DNA of 64,000 nt from Candidatus Hodarchaeum mangrovi. GTDB taxonomy: Archaea > Asgardarchaeota > Heimdallarchaeia > Hodarchaeales > Hodarchaeaceae. Where the stretch lies: NCBI GenBank assembly GCA_016839515.1, contig JAEOUE010000197.1, positions 12,766-76,765 of the forward strand, in the 5' to 3' direction. Each line of letters starts with the position of its first letter. The first letter of the stretch is position 1. The translations under genes were made by a program, and so were the position numbers. This document shows, piece after piece, positions 10,398 through 20,434 of the stretch. The notes below the pieces were generated by a model. It worked only from the letters and a program-made list of their open reading frames with translations, did not search any database and was not told where the DNA came from.

Positions 10398-11399
10398 ATG
10401 GTGATCATAAGAATGAAGGATTATCTGTTAAAGGCTAGTAATGCCTTAACTCAGTTAAATAATACTGTTTCTATTAATGCCCGAAGTATGGCTGACGTAG
10501 TTTTAAAGATTTATACTGAGTTCGAAGAATATAGGTATATTGCTGAAACTATTCCTGATTTTATAATTCGTCCAGATAATACAAAATCAAATCTTAAAGC
10601 AAGTGGTGAGATCCGAGTAGCACAGTTATTAACCTCTATTCTGTGTGATCGAATAACAGAATTGTCTTTAAAGTTATGTGAATCTCTTGAATTCAGAGAG
10701 GAAGAAGTTGATGTCAAATTAGAAATCAGGGAGATAAAAGATCAAGTATTCCGATTAGGTGAAGTGATCCATGTCCAACAAAAACTAGCTGATGGTGCTC
10801 CTGTATCAACAGAGGCGATTCAAGATTTAAGTAAACGTTACGAAGCTAGAATAATTCAGCTAGAACAAGAACTCCTTAAAAAAGAGGGACGCGCGTTAAC
10901 AATTACTGCATTAGATGCCGTTAAAAAGCCTAAAATATTTGGTAAAGAGAAATTCAAATCTTCACTAGGAGATCTTATTTTAAGTTTTGGAAAAAATCTT
11001 CGTGCTAGCTCTGGGGGGTATATATCTCTTGCAAATCTTTATACTGCCCTTAAAGAGCAAGTTCCAGACATTAATTTTTCAACAAAGGATCTAGAAGAAG
11101 TTTGTAAGATTCTAGCTAAACAAGACCTAATTTCGGGTCTTACAAAAAGATCTGGGGTTAAAATAGTAGAATTTATACCTGTTAATTTAGGAGAAGATGC
11201 AAAGAAAATATTTTCTTTAGCATCAAAAAAAGGGTTTGTAACATATGAGGAGGTTATCCTGGGAACAAAATGGGATCAACCACGTGTTGATCGTGTCCTT
11301 GAAAGCCTTGTAAATCAGAAAATAGCTCGAAAAGTATCTAGTCTTGATTCTGGGGATCAGTATTTCTTCCCTGGATTGTATGGAGAAGATAATTGGTAG
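10398..11399 (+). CDS. ESCRT-II Vps22/Vps36 (EAP30)-like tandem winged-helix protein with a long N-terminal helical region
   Basis: The C-terminal ~130 aa (GGYISLANLY...P.NLGED.KKIFSLA.KKGFVT...TKWDQPRV.RVLESL...YFFPGL) follows the Snf8/Vps22 pattern as I recall it. Confidence 0.8.
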   Translation: MVIIRMKDYLLKASNALTQLNNTVSINARSMADVVLKIYTEFEEYRYIAETIPDFIIRPDNTKSNLKASGEIRVAQLLTSILCDRITELSLKLCESLEFREEEVDVKLEIREIKDQVFRLGEVIHVQQKLADGAPVSTEAIQDLSKRYEARIIQLEQELLKKEGRALTITALDAVKKPKIFGKEKFKSSLGDLILSFGKNLRASSGGYISLANLYTALKEQVPDINFSTKDLEEVCKILAKQDLISGLTKRSGVKIVEFIPVNLGEDAKKIFSLASKKGFVTYEEVILGTKWDQPRVDRVLESLVNQKIARKVSSLDSGDQYFFPGLYGEDNW

Positions 11400-11409
11400 G
11401 TAATGAAAA

Positions 11410-12294
11410 ATGACTGAAGTTGATACAGAAAGATTTGGTGGATTATTTCGTAAAATCGGGGATGCAGTTCATATTGGTACAAAAACGTTCAAAGGAAAGA
11501 CAATTCTTGGCTCTCAATTTGGATCTGATGCTTTAATATGGAGGATAAAATCTGATGATGTAGAAAATTTTCGTAAAATAGACGGATTCATCGTAAAAGA
11601 TCCAGAAAATGCTATCCTCCTTCAATCAGGGACTCTCGTAGGCGTTGCTGGAAGCGGAATATATGAACTTGATAAAGATGCAAAAAAACCTGGTAGTGAA
11701 ATTATCTGGGTTACAAAACGAGAATTTGTTATTAAATGGGGTAGTCCTGGAGTTTATACAACTGATAATATTATGGTTGGATGTTTTGGCATCTCTCGTA
11801 TGAGAGTAGTAAATCCTCGGAATTTTATTATGAATATTGTATCACATAAACAATATTATACTAGTGAAGAATTAAGAAACTGGGTTAAACAGACAATTAC
11901 CTCTGCAGTTAAACATGTTATGTCACGTTATACCGTTCCTGAATTATTAAAGGAAAGAAGGACTTTAGCTATTCAAACGAAATCCGAACTAGCTCCTGAG
12001 ACATCTAGATGGGGTTTAGAACTTGTAGGATTAGATATTGGGGGTTTTAAAGTACCAGATGAGTACCAAGCCCTACTTTCATATGAGATTGAAAAACAGG
12101 TTTTAGAAACCCAAAAAGAATTGGATGAAGCACGTAAATCCATGAATGAAGTTTCTGAACTGATAAAGAAGTATGAACATATGATAGAACAAGCTGATGA
12201 AATGTTCTTATCAGGAAAATTATCAGAAGAACGATACAAAGAACTAACAGATAAATATTCAAAAAAATTAGCTAAACTAAAGGCTCAATTTTAA
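11410..12294 (+). CDS. SPFH/band-7 domain protein (YdjI-like) with C-terminal coiled coil
   Basis: LIWR, IKWG.P, FG..RMRV.NP..F, WGLEL..LDI.G..VP; C-terminal G.LSEERY..L motif. Confidence 0.85.
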   Translation: MTEVDTERFGGLFRKIGDAVHIGTKTFKGKTILGSQFGSDALIWRIKSDDVENFRKIDGFIVKDPENAILLQSGTLVGVAGSGIYELDKDAKKPGSEIIWVTKREFVIKWGSPGVYTTDNIMVGCFGISRMRVVNPRNFIMNIVSHKQYYTSEELRNWVKQTITSAVKHVMSRYTVPELLKERRTLAIQTKSELAPETSRWGLELVGLDIGGFKVPDEYQALLSYEIEKQVLETQKELDEARKSMNEVSELIKKYEHMIEQADEMFLSGKLSEERYKELTDKYSKKLAKLKAQF

Positions 12295-12304
12295 TAACCA
12301 GCCT

Positions 12305-14071
12305 TTACATTTTCCGAGTTTGGAGGGAACCTCCACAATCTGGACATGTAGTTACCCCTACAGCTTTGATTTCCTCATAACAATTAGCACAGATATTATT
12401 TCTGCATGATATGCACTGAAATCCAATTGCTGAATGATTAGCTAGATTACATATGCTACAATCGAACTTAAAACCAAGCTTTTCAAGAATGATAGAAGTA
12501 GATGGAATGTCAATATACCCATTTATCTCTCCATAAATAATTAAATCCTCAATTTCTCTTATTATATTAGATTCTGAATCTTTAATCTCTCTAAAAATCT
12601 CTTGAAGGGGAACTTTCCTTGTTTTTTTATCTTCTATTAAAAATTTTAAATTGAAATTCAAACTAGGGGGCGAGTCAATTTTTGAAAATTCATCTAAATA
12701 CCATCCATTTTTCAGTGGTCCTTTTTTGCAAAAATAACACTGCTCAGCACTAACAAGGTTGAAAGAATGTGTATATGTTATTCTACAGTCAGGACAATTC
12801 CTAGGAAGGTCTATAATAAATGCAGCGATATTCCCGCAAAATGGACATTCATGTTTACTATTTAAGGGTCTGCAATCAGAACATACAATCCTTCGGCAAT
12901 TTTGACACTCATAATAAAGATTTGGATCTGAATAAGAAGAAGTATCAATTTGACAAAATACTTCAAACTTCTTCACACCTCGAATGAGAAATGGAGAGGA
13001 ACTTTCACCAGCAATAATACGAAAACCAAGGACTAAGGATAAATTTATGATTACATTTAATAATAAATCAGTATCTAAATTAAGATTTCGTGCAATTGAT
13101 TCTACATCTATTCCTCTATCTAGCCAGATTTCTAATCGCGGAGAAATATAGACATTCTCTCTAATAATCCCATCTAAACTTTTATTTATTTTATTTAAAA
13201 ATGAAATAAACTCTAAATATTCAATATTAAAGCGTTGTAACCAGAATTCAATCGGAATATGACGATAAATATAGATATCAAAGAGTATTTGCGAAACCAT
13301 ATGGCTTATTGAGTATATATGTTGTTGATCAGAAGAAAAAAGGAAAGGTATTCCTTTACAATTTTCTTTTAACATTTTTTGGCATTTTTCAATATCAATT
13401 CTAAATAACCTGCTAAGAGTCTTTAGAGATATTTCTGGTTCAAGAATAAAGGTAGTATTGAGAAAACGTTCGAAAAACTTGATATCCTTCTCAATTTGGT
13501 TTGGAGTCGAAAAATCTAAAAAAGTTAGATTATATATACGATTATTTAATGGATCTATATATCCGTAAAAGGTTCCTTGTTGTGCCATTAAATCTAAAAT
13601 GGCTTCTAAGTGTTCTTCGGACCAATTGATTTGTTTTAAAAGAAATTTGAGGTCTATACTTCCTGTTTTTCCTAGTATATTCTGCAGAAAAATCATAGCT
13701 CCATTTGGTGTAAAAAAATATCTTCGAATCCGGTCAAAGAATCCATCATATTTCTGAAGTGATTGAAACATCACAATCTCTAGGATCTCTCCAGGTAAAT
13801 TGGTTGCATCAATCAAATCACAAATGTCTACATTTCCTTTTTGGGTTAAATTATGTTCAATTAATTCATTAATGTAAGAAAGCGGAATGTAAAAATCATC
13901 ATCTGGTGTTAAAATTCCATTCAACACTTTTTCACTAATGCTTTTTCTTATAAAGAGAGCGATTTTTTGAAGGTCTTCTGAGCTATCAAAAGATTGAAGA
14001 GACACAGGTTCTGTCAGTTTCTGAGCGAAATCTAGCCATTTATCCTCTTTTTTTCGAAACATATTATTCAT
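12305..14071 (-). CDS. Multi-winged-helix (UFL1-like/PCI) protein with Zn fingers and RING-like domains; candidate E3 ligase
   Basis: PCI-like WH motifs (G.FYGYID; IEDLII.GEINGYID), internal Cys cluster CQNC..CSDC..CPFC, a Zn ribbon and a C-terminal CSIC..CISC..CANC..CPDC; lies downstream of E1/Ubl on the same strand. Confidence 0.65.
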   Translation of the reverse strand: MNNMFRKKEDKWLDFAQKLTEPVSLQSFDSSEDLQKIALFIRKSISEKVLNGILTPDDDFYIPLSYINELIEHNLTQKGNVDICDLIDATNLPGEILEIVMFQSLQKYDGFFDRIRRYFFTPNGAMIFLQNILGKTGSIDLKFLLKQINWSEEHLEAILDLMAQQGTFYGYIDPLNNRIYNLTFLDFSTPNQIEKDIKFFERFLNTTFILEPEISLKTLSRLFRIDIEKCQKMLKENCKGIPFLFSSDQQHIYSISHMVSQILFDIYIYRHIPIEFWLQRFNIEYLEFISFLNKINKSLDGIIRENVYISPRLEIWLDRGIDVESIARNLNLDTDLLLNVIINLSLVLGFRIIAGESSSPFLIRGVKKFEVFCQIDTSSYSDPNLYYECQNCRRIVCSDCRPLNSKHECPFCGNIAAFIIDLPRNCPDCRITYTHSFNLVSAEQCYFCKKGPLKNGWYLDEFSKIDSPPSLNFNLKFLIEDKKTRKVPLQEIFREIKDSESNIIREIEDLIIYGEINGYIDIPSTSIILEKLGFKFDCSICNLANHSAIGFQCISCRNNICANCYEEIKAVGVTTCPDCGGSLQTRKM

Positions 14072-14236
14072 CCAATAAGCTCGAGAACATCTTCAAGCAA
14101 ATCGTCATCTATAATCATTTATATTTTGTTAATTAAATTCTAAATTATTCTGGATCAATTTTTTTGAATGAAGTTTTTATTTGAAATCTTTTATAAAACT
14201 GTAATACATTTTCAAGAATATCTTAGGTTTTGAAAT

Positions 14237-14557
14237 ATGAGTCATTCAGAATTTAGATGTATAAATTGTGGATATATTCCACATGAGTCTCCTGTATCAG
14301 GGAATTGGTATTGTCCCAAATGTGGAAAGCGATCAACGATAAAAATTGAACAGCCTCTCCACGTTCGAAGTTATTTACGGCATAAAAGTGTTCATCAACG
14401 AAGTAAAGATGAAATATATAATGATATTTATAAAAAACTTACTCTAGAAGAAAAACAAGAATTGGGTTATAAAGAACCTTATATAAATCCAGTTCTATCT
14501 TCAGTAGAACCCAAAAAGAGGGAAACCATTCGTCTTTTCTTACCCTCTGATAATTAA
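14237..14557 (+). CDS. Small Zn-ribbon protein
   Basis: CINCG...CPKCG; 106 aa. Confidence 0.6.
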   Translation: MSHSEFRCINCGYIPHESPVSGNWYCPKCGKRSTIKIEQPLHVRSYLRHKSVHQRSKDEIYNDIYKKLTLEEKQELGYKEPYINPVLSSVEPKKRETIRLFLPSDN

Positions 14558-15795
14558 TTATTTTTTTTCTCAAATATAACTTTAATTCTTTTGTCTTTTT
14601 CACCATATAAGGGTGAAAAAGTTATTCGATCCCCATTCGAGAGAATATCCTTTATTATATCTCCCTCATTCAGATGTTTATTTCCTCTAAATGCTAAGAA
14701 TTCATCTTCATATTTATTATTTACTTCCTGAACAATTTCTATGAATCTATTATCTGGATTTACATGGATCATTGATATTTGATCTGAATTTATTCCCCTA
14801 TTTCCACAAACAAAACAATCGGGATCTGCTAATAGTTTAAAAGTGGAAAAAGTGCCTGTAAGTCCTGAATAAATAGTTAAAGAAGGAATCTGGAACCTCT
14901 CCGATTTTCGTAATCTTCTCAAGATTTTTTGATCTTTTCTTTTAAGAGAAGACCTTTTTTCAAAAAAAAGTGTGTTAATTATCAATTGAGATTGAATACC
15001 ACTAATTACTGAATTGACAGTTATTATACTTGGAATATGAGTAAGTATGAGTTGTTTTAATTCTTTGATATCATAACTAGGAAATTTGTGATTTTTTGTG
15101 CAATTATTTGCAATTTTCTGAAGAAATTTCATATCTTTATTAGAATTTTCTCTGGGCTCTCGATTATATCTTGTATAAAAGGAATAAAGAGCCTTCCAAG
15201 CACAATGTTCACGAATTCTCGGAGTTCCAACCAATGTACATGGAGCTGTCCAAATATTTGTTTCATCTGGTGGGGGAGGATTGTCACATGCTAAACAAGA
15301 TGAAAAATTCTTCTGAATATATTGAACTTGTCCAATGTATCCATCAGTAGCAGAATCAATATATGGTTTAGATAATTCAATTGCTAATGAATTAATATAT
15401 TGACGAGCTAAAAAATTATCGACGCATCCAGCAATAATGTCAACTTCTTCAAAAATTTCAGTAGGGATGTCTTGGATTTTAATTGAAAATGCTTCAACAT
15501 TTACTTGTTTATTGAACATCGTACTAATTCTATCTTTCGCAACTTCTGCTTTACTCTTTCCAATATCTGTTTCTCGAAAGAGCATTTGACGATTTAGATT
15601 TGAATATTCAATTGTATCAACATCAACCAAAATTAATTTTCCAACGCCTAGGAGTGACAGATTTTTTATAACCTCACTTCCAGTGCCACCTATGCCCACA
15701 ACAAGAACTGAACTATTCTGGATTAATTTTTGATCCCATAAAACTAATCGTTCTTGTCTATCATACCGCAAGTTATATTGATCTTCTTGTGACAT
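14554..15795 (-). CDS. Ubiquitin-like activating enzyme E1 (UBA3/UBA2-like)
   Basis: RYDRQ, GIGGTG, DVDTIEYSNLNRQMLF, Zn pairs CLAC and CFVC, catalytic Cys motif PCTLVGTPRIREHC, and a probable C-terminal ubiquitin-fold domain. Confidence 0.93.
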   Translation of the reverse strand: MSQEDQYNLRYDRQERLVLWDQKLIQNSSVLVVGIGGTGSEVIKNLSLLGVGKLILVDVDTIEYSNLNRQMLFRETDIGKSKAEVAKDRISTMFNKQVNVEAFSIKIQDIPTEIFEEVDIIAGCVDNFLARQYINSLAIELSKPYIDSATDGYIGQVQYIQKNFSSCLACDNPPPPDETNIWTAPCTLVGTPRIREHCAWKALYSFYTRYNREPRENSNKDMKFLQKIANNCTKNHKFPSYDIKELKQLILTHIPSIITVNSVISGIQSQLIINTLFFEKRSSLKRKDQKILRRLRKSERFQIPSLTIYSGLTGTFSTFKLLADPDCFVCGNRGINSDQISMIHVNPDNRFIEIVQEVNNKYEDEFLAFRGNKHLNEGDIIKDILSNGDRITFSPLYGEKDKRIKVIFEKKNN

Positions 15796-15828
15796 TGAAA
15801 TAATCCTTTTAAATAAAAAGAAAAGGTA

Positions 15829-16158
15829 TTATCCACCCTTAATCTGATCAGGGACAATCATAAGCATTGCATTTTCTTCAATGTTGTAACTTGATAAGCT
15901 ATTTGATGGATTCATGCGTCTACCTTTGTATAATAGAGCAATTGGCACTACTTCAGGAATATTGAACGCATCACGAGCTGCTCCAATAGCTTGAAAAACG
16001 CTCCCATTCATATTGATATATTTTTCACGAACGTTTTGATCTGGAGGGAGCTGAGGATCTTTAAAACGTACTTTCACCATTTTTTCTATACTTGAATCGG
16101 AGGGACTTTTTCTGACTGAATTATCCCATATAACATCTTTTTTAGACAATATTATCAC
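15829..16158 (-). CDS. Ubiquitin-like modifier ending in Gly-Gly (UFM1-like features)
   Basis: Beta-grasp pattern LLYKGRRMNP..SLSSYNI, C-terminal KGG-stop, adjacent to E1. Confidence 0.9.
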   Translation of the reverse strand: MIILSKKDVIWDNSVRKSPSDSSIEKMVKVRFKDPQLPPDQNVREKYINMNGSVFQAIGAARDAFNIPEVVPIALLYKGRRMNPSNSLSSYNIEENAMLMIVPDQIKGG

Positions 16159-16169
16159 CTTTTATTAAA

Positions 16170-16970
16170 TTAGACATATAGTAAACGTTCAATTTCGGAT
16201 AGAGTTGTTAAAAGATCAATTCTACCTTTTGCATAATCCTCTAAAGGACCTTTAATGAGCGGATATGTGTTTAGTAGTTCACTTTCGAGCCCTATCGGAT
16301 AGTTCTTTTTTCTTTTGATAATTAAATTAATGATTTCCCCATCTTGTGCATAGAATTTTACAATAATATCTTTTGTACTAACCGTTGAATCATAGTTTGT
16401 AAGGATTTTTTTGATAAGTGGGTCTTTTTCATATTCAACTGTTGAAAATTCAGGTTTTTTTATGCTTACATCAACCTCCCCTAAGGCTTTTGGAATTTTA
16501 TCCTCCGCAAGCTTGTAGATTTCTTCTAATACGTTGAGAATGCTTGAAGAATTAGGAGTCCAAGATTTCATCGACGGTAAATCGTTGAGTTCACAATCTA
16601 GAATTTCTCGAAGTTGACTGGGTCCATCGATATATGGACGAGCAGGCAGATCATCTAAAACTACGAGCAATGGAAATGCATAGGCCCCTACTTGCATTTT
16701 GATTCTGATTTTTCCAATCTCATCCCCAATATATTCACCAGGAAAGTTTTCTAATACTTTTTGCCCTTCTTGGTAAATCAAATAGTAAGATTCAGCTTTT
16801 AATTCATCATCGACAATCGATTCATTTTCAGCTGTGAAAGAGGACCGTTTTATGTAATTTGTAAGATCACAATAATCACACTTCACAGGAAATTGAAAAA
16901 TGGGTTTTTGAGAGAGAGGAGCACCACAACCATTACACTGCGCAATATTACTCTGAATTTCGAAATCCAT
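16170..16970 (-). CDS. Zn-ribbon plus UEV/RWD-like (BRE/BABAM2-like) protein
   Basis: CNGC..CDYC, then FPLLVVLDDLPARP...LPSMKSWTPNSSSILNVLEEI, an E2-fold-like segment without the HPN/Cys motif; first gene of the Ubl-E1 run. Confidence 0.55.
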   Translation of the reverse strand: MDFEIQSNIAQCNGCGAPLSQKPIFQFPVKCDYCDLTNYIKRSSFTAENESIVDDELKAESYYLIYQEGQKVLENFPGEYIGDEIGKIRIKMQVGAYAFPLLVVLDDLPARPYIDGPSQLREILDCELNDLPSMKSWTPNSSSILNVLEEIYKLAEDKIPKALGEVDVSIKKPEFSTVEYEKDPLIKKILTNYDSTVSTKDIIVKFYAQDGEIINLIIKRKKNYPIGLESELLNTYPLIKGPLEDYAKGRIDLLTTLSEIERLLYV

Positions 16971-17218
16971 ACATTCTCACCAAAGATAATTTTATGTGTT
17001 TTTTACGGAAGCTAATTTTAAATCTTAATTAATTATGACTAAGATATTGTTTTATTTAACTTACAGATTATAGATAGGGTTGAAGGATTTATTAATTAAT
17101 TCATCTCGGATGAATACGATTCTTTGTATGATGACTTAGAATACAGACCTTAAAAAGATAGCTCATTCTGGTGCAATTCAACCATAAATAAGGCAACCTT
17201 TTAAATATTGAGGACTGA

Positions 17219-17818
17219 ATGAGTGTTTTAAGAGATCCATTATATCGAACTCTAAGTTATTACCGAAGTGAGATAGCTATGCAAGACCTGCATTCAAGAA
17301 GGTTAAGAGAAGAATTTAAGAGAATGTTAAAGATATTTCCACCAAAATCCAGTCATATTAAATGGAAAATAATCGATAATGACCTTCATCATTATCGTGC
17401 GACTATTTTTGGTAAAACTGGGACACCATTTGAAGGTGGAAAATGGGATATTACAGTAGATTTACCACCCGAGTATCCGTTCAAACCTCCCATTGTTAAC
17501 TTTATAACACCTATCTGGCATCCGAATATTGCTGTTGGAAAAACAAAATGGACTTGGGGATCTAATGTATGTTTAAGCTTGGTGAATTGGAATAATTTGG
17601 GGAAACCAGGCGGCTGGAAAGAAACGATTACTTTACCCAGTGTATTTGAACATATTGAAATGATGTTGGATATATATGAAAGTGTTGATAATGCTGACTT
17701 TCCTGAGTATCTTGTTGATCCAGAGGATCCATTTAATCCAGAAGCAGGAAAAGAGATGAAAGAAAACTTTCGGGCTTACTGGGAAAAAGCTTCCGATTGG
17801 ACAAAGAAGCATAGCTGA
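17219..17818 (+). CDS. Ubiquitin-conjugating enzyme E2 (UBC family)
   Basis: RRLREE, GTPFEGG, YPFKPP.V.F.TPIWHPNI, VCLSL catalytic Cys, DPFNPEA. Confidence 0.96.
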   Translation: MSVLRDPLYRTLSYYRSEIAMQDLHSRRLREEFKRMLKIFPPKSSHIKWKIIDNDLHHYRATIFGKTGTPFEGGKWDITVDLPPEYPFKPPIVNFITPIWHPNIAVGKTKWTWGSNVCLSLVNWNNLGKPGGWKETITLPSVFEHIEMMLDIYESVDNADFPEYLVDPEDPFNPEAGKEMKENFRAYWEKASDWTKKHS

Positions 17819-17834
17819 ACTAGAGGAAATTCGA

Positions 17835-18413
17835 ATGCCTTTAGAATCTAGCAACGAAAAAAATAATCAAAAAAATCATCTAAATGAGGTTAAGAAACCT
17901 TCATCAAAGAACAAAGACAAGAAAAAGATTGTTAAATTAGATATTAAAGTAAAATCGGTTTCGATCTACTGGAAACACATTCAGAAGATGACCGATTTTT
18001 CCGTACGATCTATACCTAACGAAGCTATCGGTCTTCTCGGAGGGAGAGAAATTAGGAAAGGTGAACTTTTGGTAGAAAAAGTAATTCATATATCCACTGG
18101 CGACGAAGTCTCAGTATCTTTTTCAGATGATGATTTCAAGTCTTTTGAGGATCTTCTTAATGAAAATAATCATTGCATTGGATGGTGGCATTCTCATCCA
18201 GGATATGGATTGTTTCTTTCTCCAACTGATTTAACAACTCATATTTATTCCTTTCAAGTTCATAATCCACTATCTGTGGCACTAGTTTTAGATCCAACAA
18301 GAATTAATAATCAATGTGCTGATTTTACATGTTATCAAGTAAAAGGAGAAAATGGGATTTCACCCTTTATTTATAACGAAATAGCTAGCTATATCATAAA
18401 ATCAAAAGACTAA
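17835..18413 (+). CDS. JAMM/MPN+ metalloprotease (Rpn11/CSN5-like deconjugase)
   Basis: EAIGLLGG, IGWWHSHPGYGLFLSPTD, VALVLDP. Confidence 0.95.
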   Translation: MPLESSNEKNNQKNHLNEVKKPSSKNKDKKKIVKLDIKVKSVSIYWKHIQKMTDFSVRSIPNEAIGLLGGREIRKGELLVEKVIHISTGDEVSVSFSDDDFKSFEDLLNENNHCIGWWHSHPGYGLFLSPTDLTTHIYSFQVHNPLSVALVLDPTRINNQCADFTCYQVKGENGISPFIYNEIASYIIKSKD

Positions 18414-18472: not shown

Positions 18473-19285
18473 ATGGTGTCCACATCATTATCTTTTAGTT
18501 TTTATAAGCGTATTAGTGGTCAAATAGCTCATTTTTTCCTTCAAAGCGGTTCAGCAACTGATTATACAATAATTGACTATTTTTTTGTTTTTTTAGGTCC
18601 AGCTGCAGTACTTTTCTTTACGTTCTACCTTTGGTGGTCAGGAAAAAGGAAGAATCGCAAGATTATGAGGATAACACAGGAGTCTTTAATCCAAGTATTC
18701 TCAAAAGAGTTCGAAGATCTCATTATGGAGCAGATGAGTTCAAATGGGGGCCTTTTATTTCCTAAATACAAAAAATCTACTGTAATTCCCTTTAAGGACT
18801 TTCGTGTTGTATTTGCTCTCGAAGAACGTCATTTAATGCTATCTGTTATTATTTCTTGGTTTTCAGGAGCTAAAGATTATATTGCATTAGAAGCTAATCC
18901 TAAACGTGGAAAAACATCAACCAAAATTCAAATAATTCCTAAGAAAGAAGAAGGACAAATTAAGAAACACCAAGATTTGCTATTTACTCTCGATGAAATA
19001 GAATTAGGGGTGAGACAGCTTGATGAGACATATATTTGGAAAGCATCATCAAGCCGATCAGGATTGTATTTTCTTTCAGATAAAACTCTCCTGAAAAATA
19101 TACATAAATTGCGAAACAATCTTGTTCGAATTTCTATAGATTCCTCAGATGATCCTTCTATTCGAATATACGTCAAGATAAATAAGGATTTAGACCTTGA
19201 ACAGTTATACATAACATTTATGGCTTTGTGTGAGAGGGTTGACCAAGTATTTGATAAAACTGTAATGAAAAAAACTCGAAATTAG
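18473..19285 (+). CDS. Single-pass membrane protein, CCDC47 (PAT complex)/DUF1682-like
   Basis: TM helix followed by GKRKNRKI....L...F and a later L..RH...SVI......KD.I segment, resembling CCDC47 as recalled. Confidence 0.6.
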   Translation: MVSTSLSFSFYKRISGQIAHFFLQSGSATDYTIIDYFFVFLGPAAVLFFTFYLWWSGKRKNRKIMRITQESLIQVFSKEFEDLIMEQMSSNGGLLFPKYKKSTVIPFKDFRVVFALEERHLMLSVIISWFSGAKDYIALEANPKRGKTSTKIQIIPKKEEGQIKKHQDLLFTLDEIELGVRQLDETYIWKASSSRSGLYFLSDKTLLKNIHKLRNNLVRISIDSSDDPSIRIYVKINKDLDLEQLYITFMALCERVDQVFDKTVMKKTRN

Positions 19286-19308: not shown

Positions 19309-19872
19309 CTATAGGGTTTCTAATTTTTCAGTTACACGTTGTCGAAGCCACTCAAGTCCTTCTTCAACATTGAATCCAGTTTTCGCTGAAGTTGGTACAA
19401 TTGCATAAGAATGTGTGGTAACTTTGTGGAGATTGAGAGCTCGAGCTACTTCTCCTGCAGAACCAGCATTTTCTAAATCTTGTTTATTAGCTAAAACCAA
19501 TATAGGAATATTTTGAACGCGATCATTGTTAAGAACATACTTCCATAATTCCTTTCTTGCTTCTTCATATCGTGCTTTATCAGCTGAATCAATCACATAC
19601 ACTATTCCCATGGAACCTGCCATGTAACTTTCCCACAATGATTCACGGAATGCTTCTTGCCCTCCAATGTCCCACGAAATAAACCTTACATTTCCCGAGC
19701 TGAATTCATCAACATTCATTCCGAGAGTTCTAAATGTGCTACTGTCAAATTCACCCGATGTAATTCTTTTAACAATCGTTGTTTTACCTGCGTGATCTAG
19801 CCCTAACCATGCAATTTTGACTGTTAGACGTTCTTTGGCAAATTTTGCTCTAAGTTTGGTTAAAAAGCTCAT
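19309..19872 (-). CDS. Arf/Arl-family small GTPase with N-terminal amphipathic helix
   Basis: GLDHAGKTT, WDIGGQ, LW..Y, ANKQD, TSAKTG..V.EGL.WL. Confidence 0.93.
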   Translation of the reverse strand: MSFLTKLRAKFAKERLTVKIAWLGLDHAGKTTIVKRITSGEFDSSTFRTLGMNVDEFSSGNVRFISWDIGGQEAFRESLWESYMAGSMGIVYVIDSADKARYEEARKELWKYVLNNDRVQNIPILVLANKQDLENAGSAGEVARALNLHKVTTHSYAIVPTSAKTGFNVEEGLEWLRQRVTEKLETL

Positions 19873-19882
19873 TTTTGGGCAC

Positions 19883-20434
19883 CTATTTGTTCTTCCGTGT
19901 TATTATAATGCGAAATCTTTCACTCATCCACTGCCATGGTTCATCAACTCCTTCTCCTGTAAGTGCTGAACAAGGATATACTGCAAATGTCCTTGGTCGC
20001 ATACTAATTTCTCTTTCTAACCCTAATGATTCAATTATCTTCTCTAAAGGCATTGCTTCAGCTAAATCTTGTTTATTAGCTAGGAAAAGAAAAGCTGAGT
20101 CCTCTGGGGCCCATTTAATTACTTGTTGCAACCATTTCCCTGCTTCTTCAACTTTTGATTTATCTGCTGAATCAAAAACAAACACAATTCCTACTGACTT
20201 GGTTACGAAAGGTTCCCATAAACTAGTTGGATATGTAACCTGACCCCCCAGATCAGCAGCCATGACCTCAATATCTCCAATTTTTAGTGTTTCAATATTC
20301 ATACCCATCGTAGGAACAGTTTCTAGGTTATCTTGTCCTTTCAATCTTCTTACTAATGTTGTTTTCCCTGCATTAGCTAATCCAACGAAGGTCATCTGAT
20401 TTTCTATTTCACGACCGAATATTTTTGTTGGCAT
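19883..20434 (-). CDS. Arf/Arl-family small GTPase
   Basis: GLANAGKTT, TVPTMG.N, DLGGQ, ANKQD, CSALTGEGV...WQWM. Confidence 0.92.
   Translation of the reverse strand: MPTKIFGREIENQMTFVGLANAGKTTLVRRLKGQDNLETVPTMGMNIETLKIGDIEVMAADLGGQVTYPTSLWEPFVTKSVGIVFVFDSADKSKVEEAGKWLQQVIKWAPEDSAFLFLANKQDLAEAMPLEKIIESLGLEREISMRPRTFAVYPCSALTGEGVDEPWQWMSERFRIIITRKNK

Follow-up and report, generated by a model that had tools for sequence, protein, structure and literature searches.

Related conjugation systems

Eukaryotic UFMylation employs the modifier UFM1, the E1 UBA5, the E2 UFC1, UFL1 together with DDRGK1 and CDK5RAP3, and the UFSP proteases. Among archaea, operons of the Caldiarchaeum subterraneum type are described as comprising ubiquitin, an E1, an E2, a small RING E3 and an Rpn11-like JAMM protease (PMC5654768, PMC6043591), and gene clusters linking ubiquitin with ESCRT components are reported from Asgard archaea (Hatano et al. 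2022, PMC9192718). An Asgard 'Ufm1' family of isomorphic ESPs has also been reported (Koestlbacher et al. 2026, PMC12962969; preprint 10.1101/2024.07.03.601958); these small β-grasp proteins are described as resembling eukaryotic Ufm1 most in structure and as occurring in nine major Asgard clades, and the names UFL1, UFC1 and UBA5 do not occur in the main text of that report.

The locus described here lies in the window, the whole 64,000-nucleotide stretch of Candidatus Hodarchaeum mangrovi DNA that was analysed. We think it probable that this Hodarchaeales archaeon has here a third ubiquitin-type conjugation system, complete in itself, with a UFL1-like RING ligase and a ubiquitin-like modifier (Ubl) that is not UFM1. 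When compared with the Caldiarchaeum type as described, the candidate ligase is not a small RING protein but a 588-residue one that has two zinc modules and a winged-helix array resembling that of UFL1, there is an extra protein combining a zinc ribbon with tandem UBC/RWD folds, and the Ubl carries invariant motifs of its own as well as an N-terminal extension that is conserved and modelled as disordered. The reported ubiquitin-ESCRT clusters are similar in having a ubiquitin-type tag, an E1 and an E2, with an adjoining EAP30-domain gene and a UEV-fold protein beside the tag, but the canonical cluster of this genome is found elsewhere, on contig C153.

With UFMylation the cassette shares a winged-helix array, that of the 588-residue family, related to the N-terminal array of UFL1 (E 2.4e-7 to 3.4e-6). 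In other respects it differs: the tag is not UFM1-like, the E1 is not UBA5-like, the E2 has an HPN motif, the protease is a JAMM metalloprotease rather than a Cys protease, the candidate ligase has a RING-like finger, and the genome contains no UFC1 match at E ≤ 1 and no DDRGK match over the cut-off. The link to UFMylation runs through the ligase candidate, not the modifier. We read the cassette as a hint at the role of UFL1 before UFM1, not as a proto-UFM1 pathway.

Organization of the cassette

The genes form two divergent units. The minus strand encodes the 266-residue zinc-ribbon/UEV-like accessory protein (16170..16970), the 109-residue Ubl (15829..16158), the 413-residue E1 (14554..15795) and the 588-residue candidate E3 (12305..14071), while the plus strand encodes the 199-residue UBC-type E2 (17219..17818) and the 192-residue JAMM/MPN+ metalloprotease (17835..18413). 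According to the ORF coordinates, the units are separated by a spacer of 248 bp (16971..17218), presumed to be the site of both promoters. The ORFs and a Pfam scan of the window show all cassette genes to be present and intact. All ORF positions given in a preliminary description of this DNA were confirmed, and the full conjugation cluster that it claimed is indeed there, with a UBA1/UBA2/UBA3-type E1, a UBC E2 that has the HPN motif, and a JAMM protease.

The modifier

The Ubl comprises an N-terminal extension of around 26 residues, a β-grasp core (residues 27–105) and a tail in which GG directly precedes the stop codon (...IKGG). Both the extension and the mature GG end had been correctly described. 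The extension retains a KKDV(I/V)WD motif in most orthologues, although it is modelled as disordered (pLDDT <50, residues 1–18), and several family members carry one to six residues beyond the GG. The family alignment also reveals invariant motifs peculiar to this family, which is found in 22 of the 301 Asgard genomes sampled, representing three of 30 families.

The preliminary description had considered the Ubl to be UFM1-like. Profile comparisons give a different picture, with 24 of 24 family members matching the ubiquitin and Rad60-SLD entries in Pfam and none of the 24 matching Ufm1 at E ≤ 10. No Ufm1 match over the cut-off was seen in any of the 301 Asgard genomes or in the genome under study. 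When the family profile was compared with solved structures, the best 60 of 249 matches were ubiquitin-type chains only, with no UFM1 chain among them, and in a search of 1.84 billion representatives the non-family matches sampled were polyubiquitins. The proposed structural comparison with UFM1, ubiquitin and SUMO likewise went against the UFM1 assignment: Foldseek and two VIA-align searches of solved structures with the confident Ubl model were led by ISG15, ubiquitin, NEDD8, SUMO and Dsk2, and further included FAT10 and many other β-grasp families, but listed no UFM1 entry. We place the Ubl on a deep branch among the ubiquitin/SUMO/ISG15-like β-grasp tags; it is not UFM1.

This bears directly on the suggestion that the cassette is a hybrid or ancestral 'proto-UFMylation' pathway, in which a Ubl corresponding or ancestral to UFM1 would be served by ubiquitin-type E1, E2 and protease. 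The candidate ligase is UFL1-like, as that suggestion would have it, and the Ubl family shares a DP.LP turn and a last-strand Pro with the UFM1 string that had been quoted in its favour. One distant member, P0168, gives a sub-threshold Pfam Ufm1 match (12.6 bits, E 0.13), ranking below Rad60-SLD, TUG-UBL1 and ubiquitin. Nevertheless, given the Pfam results for the 24 members and 301 genomes, a tail that ends in GG, an E1 much nearer to UBA1, UBA2 and UBA3 than to UBA5, and a genome with no UFC1 match at E ≤ 1, we regard such a pathway as improbable. Structure-based Ufm1 homologues are reported in nine Asgard clades (PMC12962969), which could be held to favour it, and the Ubl may in principle belong to that set; however, its best structural matches are not to UFM1 and its family occupies the three sampled families given above, not nine clades.

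E1, E2 and JAMM protease

The E1 matches the Pfam ThiF entry (E 9.4e-53) across residues 21–321. Among solved structures its best relatives are UBA1 (1.3e-37), SAE2/UBA2 (3e-34) and UBA3 (3.4e-28), ahead of ThiF (2.5e-22), MoeB (6.6e-21) and UBA5 (1e-17). The preliminary assignment to the UBA3/UBA2 type, with a Cys domain, holds: Cys186, within the string quoted there, aligns with Cys632 of human UBA1 (as counted from the printed alignment), and is probably the catalytic residue, inside an inserted Cys domain. The E2 (UQ_con, E 4.7e-24) has UBE2K, UBC1, UBE2T and UBE2D as its closest solved relatives and contains two insertions around the active site. Its HPN motif, noted previously, is conserved together with Cys118: H101, N103 and C118 are invariant in all 20 aligned sequences and P102 is present in at least 90% of the 20. 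In the printed alignment, most of the 17 same-family orthologues start no more than two residues from Met21 of the query, which points to Met21 (17279) as the probable start.

The protease was rightly called a JAMM enzyme (Prok-JAB, E 4.5e-10; JAB, E 2.8e-8) and shows the Glu and HSHP...S..D motif. It is likely to be a deconjugase and, in relatives whose Ubl has residues after the GG, probably also the tail-processing enzyme. E1, E2 and protease are of ordinary ubiquitin type. By family membership, the E1 would adenylate the GG tail of the Ubl and take the Ubl onto Cys186, the E2 would receive it on Cys118, and the JAMM protease would remove the tag, as well as trim the tail where relatives encode residues after the GG.

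Could the Ubl-E1 pair instead act mainly as a sulfur carrier of the SAMP/Urm1/MoaD-ThiS kind, with conjugation secondary? The E1 does belong to the ThiF/MoeB superfamily and possesses CxxC pairs of the kind that bind zinc in ThiF/MoeB-type enzymes, and the GG end of the Ubl would suit such a function. Yet the scores against UBA1, UBA2 and UBA3 are far better than those against ThiF and MoeB, the E1 has the inserted domain with a Cys aligned to the catalytic residue of UBA1, and an HPN-Cys E2 and a JAMM gene lie next door, presumably co-transcribed, and accompany the Ubl-E1 pair in G070, a distant genome, as well. The Pfam scan of the window gave no rhodanese domain. We consider a primary sulfur carrier role very improbable.

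The candidate ligase

The 588-residue protein begins with a UFL1-like winged-helix array (around residues 20–170 and beyond), continues with a Cys/His-rich zinc module (around 373–448) and a winged helix (around 465–525), and ends in a C4C4 RING-like finger (538–579). When its family profile (A2, 35 sequences) was compared with solved structures, the best four of 44 matches were to UFL1 or a DDRGK1-UFL1 fusion (E values 2.4e-7, 2.5e-6, 3.2e-6 and 3.4e-6); the solved UFL1 entries named in this comparison are 8ohd, 8qfc, 8c0d and 8b9x. RING domains followed, matching residues 522–582 at E 0.009–0.3. In Pfam, 15 of the 35 members match E3_UFM1_ligase at E ≤ 0.01 (best 3e-6) and 22 match PCI; the protein in the window itself scores 18.1 bits against E3_UFM1_ligase, under the 23.2-bit cut-off. 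The invariant columns of the alignment include 16 Cys. The RING matches of the finger are weak, and its ligands 4 and 5 are spaced by four residues where RING fingers usually have two or three; to our knowledge UFL1 has no RING-like finger. That the protein labelled earlier as 'WH/RING' is a relative of UFL1 had not been foreseen. Two further UFL1-like winged-helix proteins in the genome (915 and 795 residues) both lie outside the Ubl clusters, so carrying the UFL1 scaffold does not in itself link a protein to conjugation.

On the basis of its linkage and homology, and of a complex prediction of weak support, the 588-residue protein may be an E3 or substrate adaptor, with the RING-like finger docking the charged E2 and the winged-helix array binding the target. 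The predicted complex with the E2 scored 0.43 (runs 0.37, 0.43 and 0.44), 0.35 above the best control (0.08), with at least 41% of contacts shared between runs and a partner pLDDT of at least 76. Of 80 solved complexes, 58 attain the mark applied, as do two of 110 mismatches, but passing scores of 0.60 or lower comprise seven of those 80 and both mismatches. A score in this band, where a pass is usually wrong unless the pairing was already likely, lends weak support. The pass may also come from likeness, because many RING-E2 complexes have been solved.

It is possible, though rather unlikely, that the protein is not a ligase but a nucleic-acid-binding protein, scaffold or substrate travelling with the cassette, the E2 then working alone or with an E3 from another locus. 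Proteins that bind DNA or RNA commonly contain winged-helix arrays and zinc fingers, the prediction with the E2 is weak, and in a sister family (G265) the gene following E1 encodes instead a 533-residue protein with zinc and helix-turn-helix repeats, the 588-like gene being on another contig. Against this, the best solved matches are specifically to UFL1, with the first transcription factor only at E 0.11; the RING-matching eight-Cys finger at the C-terminus does not vary among the 35 sequences; the complex score exceeds its best control by 0.35; and the gene is tightly linked to the Ubl, the two lying on one contig around 4 kb or less apart in 18 of the 20 genomes of the Hodarchaeales family f1 that have both.

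The 266-residue accessory protein

This protein starts with a C4 zinc ribbon, followed by a central domain of UBC/UEV/RWD fold (around residues 55–163) that lacks HPN and has a near-invariant Cys126, and ends with an RWD-like domain (around 184–264). The previous 'Zn-UEV' label holds at fold level. Going by the fold, it may be a non-canonical cofactor, binding the Ubl or the E2 in the manner of a UEV; that it might be a second, HPN-less E2 is the less likely option.

Distribution and genomic neighbours

The genome contains three Ubl clusters, of which the cassette is one, distinct from the ubiquitin-ESCRT operon, as had been proposed. The canonical locus on contig C153 encodes Vps25, two Snf7 proteins, EAP30 (79 bits), Vps28, a UEV, a 331-residue E1, an E2 and an 82-residue ubiquitin ending in GGKR. 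The two E1 enzymes are 35% identical, and BLAST finds no match between the Ubl and the C153 ubiquitin. The cassette is syntenic across family f1, the order of all 13 genes being kept in the complete genome G256, but nearly all of the syntenic genomes belong to a single genus-level group and are kin rather than independent. In G070 (family f23) there is an operon of Ubl, E1, E2 and JAMM, with neither the 588- nor the 266-residue protein gene found on its 6.9-kb contig.

The cassette is flanked by plus-strand genes for an EAP30 (ESCRT-II-like) protein (333 residues, E 7.5e-9) and an SPFH/Band 7 protein (294 residues, Band_7 E 1e-17), together at 10398..12294, and for a single-pass, CCDC47-like membrane protein (270 residues, 18473..19285, Pfam CCDC47 E 9e-4). 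The EAP30 gene is a second, divergent copy, the stronger being that on C153; the EAP30-SPFH order recurs in G256 and G220. CCDC47 is a subunit of the PAT complex. Its namesake here has one N-terminal hydrophobic segment (around 31–55), and six of 20 members of its family match Pfam CCDC47 at E ≤ 0.01 (best 1.2e-8). The gene occurs in 21 of 21 other f1 genomes and, in the genomes compared by coordinates, shares a contig with the Ubl at a distance of around 2.4–2.7 kb.

These syntenic neighbours are, by adjacency, candidate partners, and a sorting signal linked to membranes or ESCRT can be envisaged, in which the tag would mark cargo for the EAP30-like, SPFH, CCDC47-like and Arf-like neighbours. 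The order EAP30, SPFH, cassette, CCDC47-like gene and two Arf-like GTPases is kept in G256, the CCDC47-like gene is regularly present in f1, and linkage of ubiquitin with ESCRT is established in Asgard archaea (PMC9192718). However, adjacency is the evidence here, the core ESCRT genes are on C153, alongside a different ubiquitin, E1 and E2, and the CCDC47 likeness is weak for the protein in the window, with CCDC47 not found when the family profile was compared with solved structures. We consider such a signal unlikely, if somewhat less so than a proto-UFMylation pathway; it is compatible with a ubiquitin-type cascade.

Between the E1 and 588-residue protein genes there is also a plus-strand ORF of 106 residues (14237..14557) with weak zinc-ribbon matches in Pfam, convergent with the minus-strand E1 and overlapping its stop by four bases, which has a syntenic counterpart in G256 (46% identity). 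Both this ORF and the CCDC47-like gene were absent from the preliminary description, and both are syntenic in a relative.

Organization of the cassette

The cluster consists of two divergent units separated by a 248-bp spacer. On the minus strand lie ORFs for a 266-residue protein (16170-16970), for the ubiquitin-like modifier of 109 residues (Ubl; 15829-16158), whose IKGG end is followed by the stop codon, for a 413-residue E1 (14554-15795; Pfam ThiF, E = 9.4e-53) and, beyond a small convergent zinc-ribbon ORF on the plus strand (14237-14557), for a Cys-rich protein of 588 residues (12305-14071). The plus-strand unit encodes a 199-residue E2 (17219-17818; Pfam UQ_con, E = 5e-24), a JAMM protease of 192 residues (17835-18413; Pfam JAB, 3e-8, and Prok-JAB, 4.5e-10) and a CCDC47-like membrane protein of 270 residues (18473-19285). 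The tag, its enzymes and the 266- and 588-residue proteins have their ORFs where the preliminary description, made by a model from the sequence alone, had placed them. The G+C content of the window is about 32%, and the names attached to near-identical proteins point to an Asgard archaeon of Hodarchaeales type. The stretch is present in 20 DNA sequencing runs from seven studies and, among the 24 runs listed, none that contains it is RNA.

Conjugation and deconjugation enzymes

Among solved structures the E1 matches UBA1 (E = 1.3e-37), SAE2/UBA2 (3e-34) and UBA3 (3.4e-28) best, with far weaker matches to ThiF, MoeB and UBA5 (1e-17 for the last). Its Pfam ThiF match, within residues 21-321, holds an insertion. 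In the printed alignment Cys186, part of a CT....PR..EHC motif, is paired with residue 632 of full-length human UBA1, the catalytic cysteine of that enzyme. E1 residues 213-267 align with UBA1 850-904, which fits a Cys-domain insertion of small size. The protein thus appears to combine a ThiF-type adenylation domain with a cysteine in an inserted Cys domain, as canonical E1s do; around 85 residues lie C-terminal to its second CxxC pair, canonical E1s having at their C-terminus a ubiquitin-fold domain by which the E2 is recruited.

The E2 scores 85 bits against the UBC model (PF00179; cut-off 27). In an alignment of 20 sequences His101, Asn103 and Cys118 are invariant and Pro102 is at least 90% conserved, so that the protein carries the HPN motif and catalytic-type cysteine that mark the UBC family. 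Two insertions lie near the active site, and most orthologues begin at, or no more than two residues from, Met21 of the ORF. The protease exceeds the cut-offs of both Prok-JAB (39.8 bits against 25) and JAB (34 bits against 22.5), and the metal-site motif (Glu plus H.H...S..D) is visible in its translation, as in members of the JAMM/MPN+ family. The canonical E1, HPN-bearing E2 and JAMM protease of the preliminary description therefore hold good on match scores, aligned cysteines and motifs, and the enzymes of the cassette are, judged by their sequences, of the ordinary ubiquitin kind.

The modifier and its resemblances

Homologues of the Ubl form a tight family of 39 proteins at E ≤ 1e-3, with invariant FKDPQLP, PIALL, IVPD and IKGG motifs. 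Some members carry one to six residues beyond the Gly-Gly, and in those members processing would be needed. The AlphaFold2 model is confident (core pLDDT around 96) and shows a β-grasp fold with an exposed C-terminal Gly-Gly. Its first 18 residues have a pLDDT under 50. Within residues 1-26 there is nevertheless a KKDV(I/V)WD motif, kept in most orthologues despite the predicted disorder, and this conservation suggests a short binding motif.

By itself the window's Ubl falls below the Pfam cut-offs for ubiquitin (PF00240; 21.8 bits, cut-off 25.4) and Rad60-SLD (PF11976; 23.7 bits, cut-off 23.8). At E ≤ 10, all 24 family members match both models, with best values of 2.9e-6 and 2.5e-7, respectively. 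The part chiefly matched is ubiquitin residues 42-70, and in the local match Leu76 and Val102 of the Ubl occupy the positions of ubiquitin Ile44 and Val70. A family profile run against solved structures retrieved ubiquitin-type chains alone among the best 60 of 249 matches. Against 1.84 billion representative sequences it gave 263 matches at E ≤ 1e-3; of the 150 listed, six are short family members and the rest long proteins with two to ten matched stretches each, the five of these that were scanned all being polyubiquitins. An Atlas feature search with one family member led to ubiquitin and Rad60-SLD clusters.

The preliminary description had aligned the Ubl by eye with UFM1 in preference to ubiquitin. 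With the Ufm1 model of Pfam (PF03671) no match at E ≤ 10 was obtained for any of the 24, a count subject to the filters of HMMER, against the 24 of 24 that match ubiquitin and Rad60-SLD. One distant member of the Ubl family does reach 12.6 bits (E = 0.13) with Ufm1, but three other Ubl models rank higher. The genome as a whole has no Ufm1 match over the cut-off, its best (E = 1) being on another contig, and none of 301 Asgard genomes has one. A Foldseek comparison, proposed in the preliminary description as a check, returned ubiquitin, SUMO, NEDD8, Caldiarchaeum ubiquitin, Dsk2, FAT10 and ISG15, with UFM1 absent from its 49 rows. Three structure searches in all yielded no UFM1 among the matches listed; since matches that differ by less than one Z unit count as tied, and a family absent from the listing may still be similar, this indicates the lack of a preference for UFM1 rather than proof of distance from it.

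UFM1 works with a UBA5-type E1, which has no separate Cys domain, and with UFC1, an E2 without HPN. The enzymes of the cassette do not follow this pattern, the E1 having a Cys-domain insertion and the E2 an HPN motif. UFC1 (PF08694) has no match at E ≤ 1 in the genome, which is 91% complete, and DDRGK none over the cut-off (best E = 0.06). An affinity to UFM1 thus finds no support from Pfam, the solved-structure profile, the 1.84 billion representatives, the Atlas or the structure searches: in the data at hand the Ubl shows no preference for UFM1. The result is a caution against naming tags as UFM1 homologues by visual resemblance. Structure-based Ufm1 homologues have been reported in nine Asgard clades by Koestlbacher et al. 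2026 (PMC12962969), an article whose main text does not mention UFL1, UFC1 or UBA5.

Relation to other conjugation clusters

Archaeal ubiquitin operons (PMC5654768, PMC6043591) and Asgard ubiquitin-ESCRT clusters (PMC9192718) have already been described. A canonical locus of the latter type is present on another contig of the same genome (C153), with Vps25, two Snf7 proteins, EAP30 (79 bits), Vps28 and a UEV, together with a 331-residue E1, an 82-residue ubiquitin with a GGKR end and an E2. A third Ubl cluster, on contig C304 (L008:45-3481), encodes tandem Ubls of 116 and 145 residues, each with a long acidic stretch ahead of its core and STAG (Ala-Gly, not Gly-Gly) as its C-terminus, followed by a 416-residue E1, a 175-residue E2 and a 275-residue JAB protease. 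The window's E1 is only 38% identical to the C304 E1 and 35% identical to that of C153, which argues that the cassette is a separate system, as had been proposed with respect to the ubiquitin-ESCRT operon. What survives of the original interpretation is, then, a separate ubiquitin-type conjugation cluster with canonical enzymes; a UFM1-like tag is not supported.

The 266-residue protein

By sequence, this protein has no significant match in Pfam or among solved structures, and hhalign comparisons gave 0.3% with the E2 family and 1% with the Ubl family. Its model (pLDDT 76) has three parts, among them a zinc ribbon and an RWD-like C-terminal domain; a helix, a four-stranded sheet and further helices are predicted, as in the UEV/RWD/UBC superfold, with no HPN-Cys site. 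HPN is absent, and Cys126 is nearly invariant. In another Asgard family the central domain is found again, alongside UQ_con, BRE-like and RWD domains, in larger proteins: one of 588 residues (L060:3335-5101, minus strand, genome G113) and one of 560 (L061:3147-4829, minus strand, genome G210), each with several UBC-superfold domains in a row. Taken together, the modelled fold, the missing HPN and this recurrence make the earlier label of 'Zn-UEV' apt at the level of fold. A weakly SUMO2-like stretch (E = 0.022) was set aside, the model showing an RWD-like C-terminal domain there and not a β-grasp.

A UFL1-like candidate ligase

The interest of the cassette lies not in its tag but in the 588-residue protein, a UFL1-like candidate ligase with a RING-like finger. 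Its family comprises 62 proteins of about 583-588 residues. With a profile of 35 members, the four best matches among solved structures are UFL1 or a DDRGK1-UFL1 fusion (E = 2.4e-7 to 3.4e-6), and the aligned part of UFL1 is its N-terminal row of winged helices. The Pfam E3_UFM1_ligase model (PF09743) is matched by 15 of the 35 at E ≤ 0.01 (best 3e-6), the window's own protein falling below the cut-off (18.1 bits against 23.2), and PCI is matched by 22. The C-terminal winged helix weakly resembles that of DDRGK1 (E = 0.37-6). Directly after UFL1 among the solved structures come RING domains, over residues 522-582 and at weak values (E = 0.009-0.3; 0.018-0.3 for those of UHRF1, MAT1, BRE1, TRIM and CNOT4). 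Here Cys538, 541, 553, 556, 561, 564, 576 and 579 are invariant and would form the RING-like finger. A central Cys/His module is also invariant.

These comparisons indicate a relationship to UFL1 at the family level, not full-length orthology: the protein is shorter than UFL1 (588 against about 794 residues) and the C-terminal halves differ. UFL1 is a scaffold-type ligase without a RING that acts with DDRGK1 and UFC1 and, to our knowledge, is unusual among ligases in having no RING, HECT or RBR domain. The 588-residue protein does not match that working mode, since it bears a RING-like finger in a genome with neither a UFC1 match nor a DDRGK match over the cut-off.

Complex prediction weakly suggests that the protein may bind the E2. 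The score was 0.43 (runs of 0.37, 0.43 and 0.44) against 0.08 for the best control, with at least 41% contact agreement between runs and a partner pLDDT of at least 76. In calibration, 58 of 80 solved complexes reached the mark applied, as did 2 of 110 mismatches; with scores of 0.60 or below, only seven of the 80 did so, along with both passing mismatches. Many RING-E2 pairs have solved structures, and the pass may reflect likeness to these.

Two further UFL1-like proteins are encoded elsewhere in the genome: one of 915 residues on C194 (L015:3797-6544, minus strand), with UFL1-like winged-helix repeats and an E3_UFM1_ligase match of E = 4.4e-5, and one of 795 residues on C179 (L016:7405-9792, plus strand), in which such repeats are joined by HEAT repeats. 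No Ubl genes lie in the neighbourhood of either. UFL1-like domains in Asgard fusion proteins were described in a 2020 preprint. Our literature search found no paper in which a cassette of Ubl, E1, E2 and JAMM is linked with a UFL1-like protein, although supplements may hold such a report.

The cassette is a concrete, testable candidate for UFL1 function before UFM1: one protein joins a UFL1-like scaffold with a RING-like finger, and its gene is linked to those of a ubiquitin-type tag, an E1, an E2 and a deconjugase. We think it rather improbable that it preserves the actual pre-UFM1 context of UFL1. Were it to do so, the partners of an ancestral RING-bearing UFL1 would have been an ordinary ubiquitin-type tag with its E1 and E2, and the membrane, next to a CCDC47-like protein, a possible place of action. 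In the lineage leading to eukaryotes UFL1 would then have retained its scaffold and lost the RING, with UFM1, UBA5 and UFC1 replacing tag, E1 and E2. The parts, apart from the membrane neighbour, are small and soluble, which should allow reconstitution of the cascade in vitro.

Distribution and gene neighbourhood

In the sample of 301 Asgard genomes the Ubl family occurs in 22, including 19 of the 20 others of the same family (f1), one of two in its sister family (f2) and one of six in a distant family (f23). The 588-residue family likewise occurs in 22 (all 20 others of f1 and one of two in f2), and the 266-residue family in the present genome, 19 of the 20 others of f1 and one of two in f2. 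Of the 20 f1 genomes with both the Ubl and the 588-residue gene, 18 have them on one contig and no more than about 4 kb apart, the remaining two having them on separate contigs of fragmented assemblies. The Ubl and 266-residue genes adjoin each other in all 21 genomes that have the two; because these genomes are kin, the counts overstate independence. The complete genome G256 keeps the full order: EAP30, SPFH, 588-residue protein, zinc ribbon, E1, Ubl, 266-residue protein, E2, JAMM, CCDC47-like protein, Arf, Arf and ThrRS. On the single contig of G220, a full Ubl gene lies at about 694 kb with the 266-residue and CCDC47-like genes, and the extreme end of the contig has another Ubl match, a partial one, beside the E1 and 588-residue genes; the cassette looks to have been split over the contig ends or misjoined there.

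In the f2 genome (G265) the slot of the 588-residue gene after E1 is taken by a gene for a 533-residue protein in which a zinc motif at the N-terminus is combined with successive helix-turn-helix-like repeats (L026:8389-9990, plus strand), a 588-like gene being found on another contig. The distant f23 holder (G070) has, of the cassette, Ubl, E1, E2 and JAMM alone, on a short contig. They are followed by a 946-residue protein (L027:3578-6418, plus strand) that has a domain resembling TRAP-beta (translocon-associated protein beta) and ends in a zinc ribbon.

The 270-residue neighbour has a single N-terminal hydrophobic segment. It scores 18.9 bits with the CCDC47 model (PF07946; cut-off 27.7), which 6 of the 20 members of its family match at E ≤ 0.01 (best 1.2e-8). 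The family profile gave no match to CCDC47, or other relevant match, among solved structures, and our literature search found no paper joining CCDC47 and Asgard. At 10398-12294 (plus strand) the window encodes two more proteins whose genes keep their place beside the cassette in relatives. One is a second EAP30 (ESCRT-II-like) protein, divergent and much extended at its N-terminus; the other belongs to the SPFH/Band 7 group and has a coiled coil at its C-terminus. Directly past the CCDC47-like gene, at 19309-20434 (minus strand), lie two tandem genes for Arf-family small GTPases (E = 1.5e-47 and 5.3e-38), which are syntenic in G256 as well.
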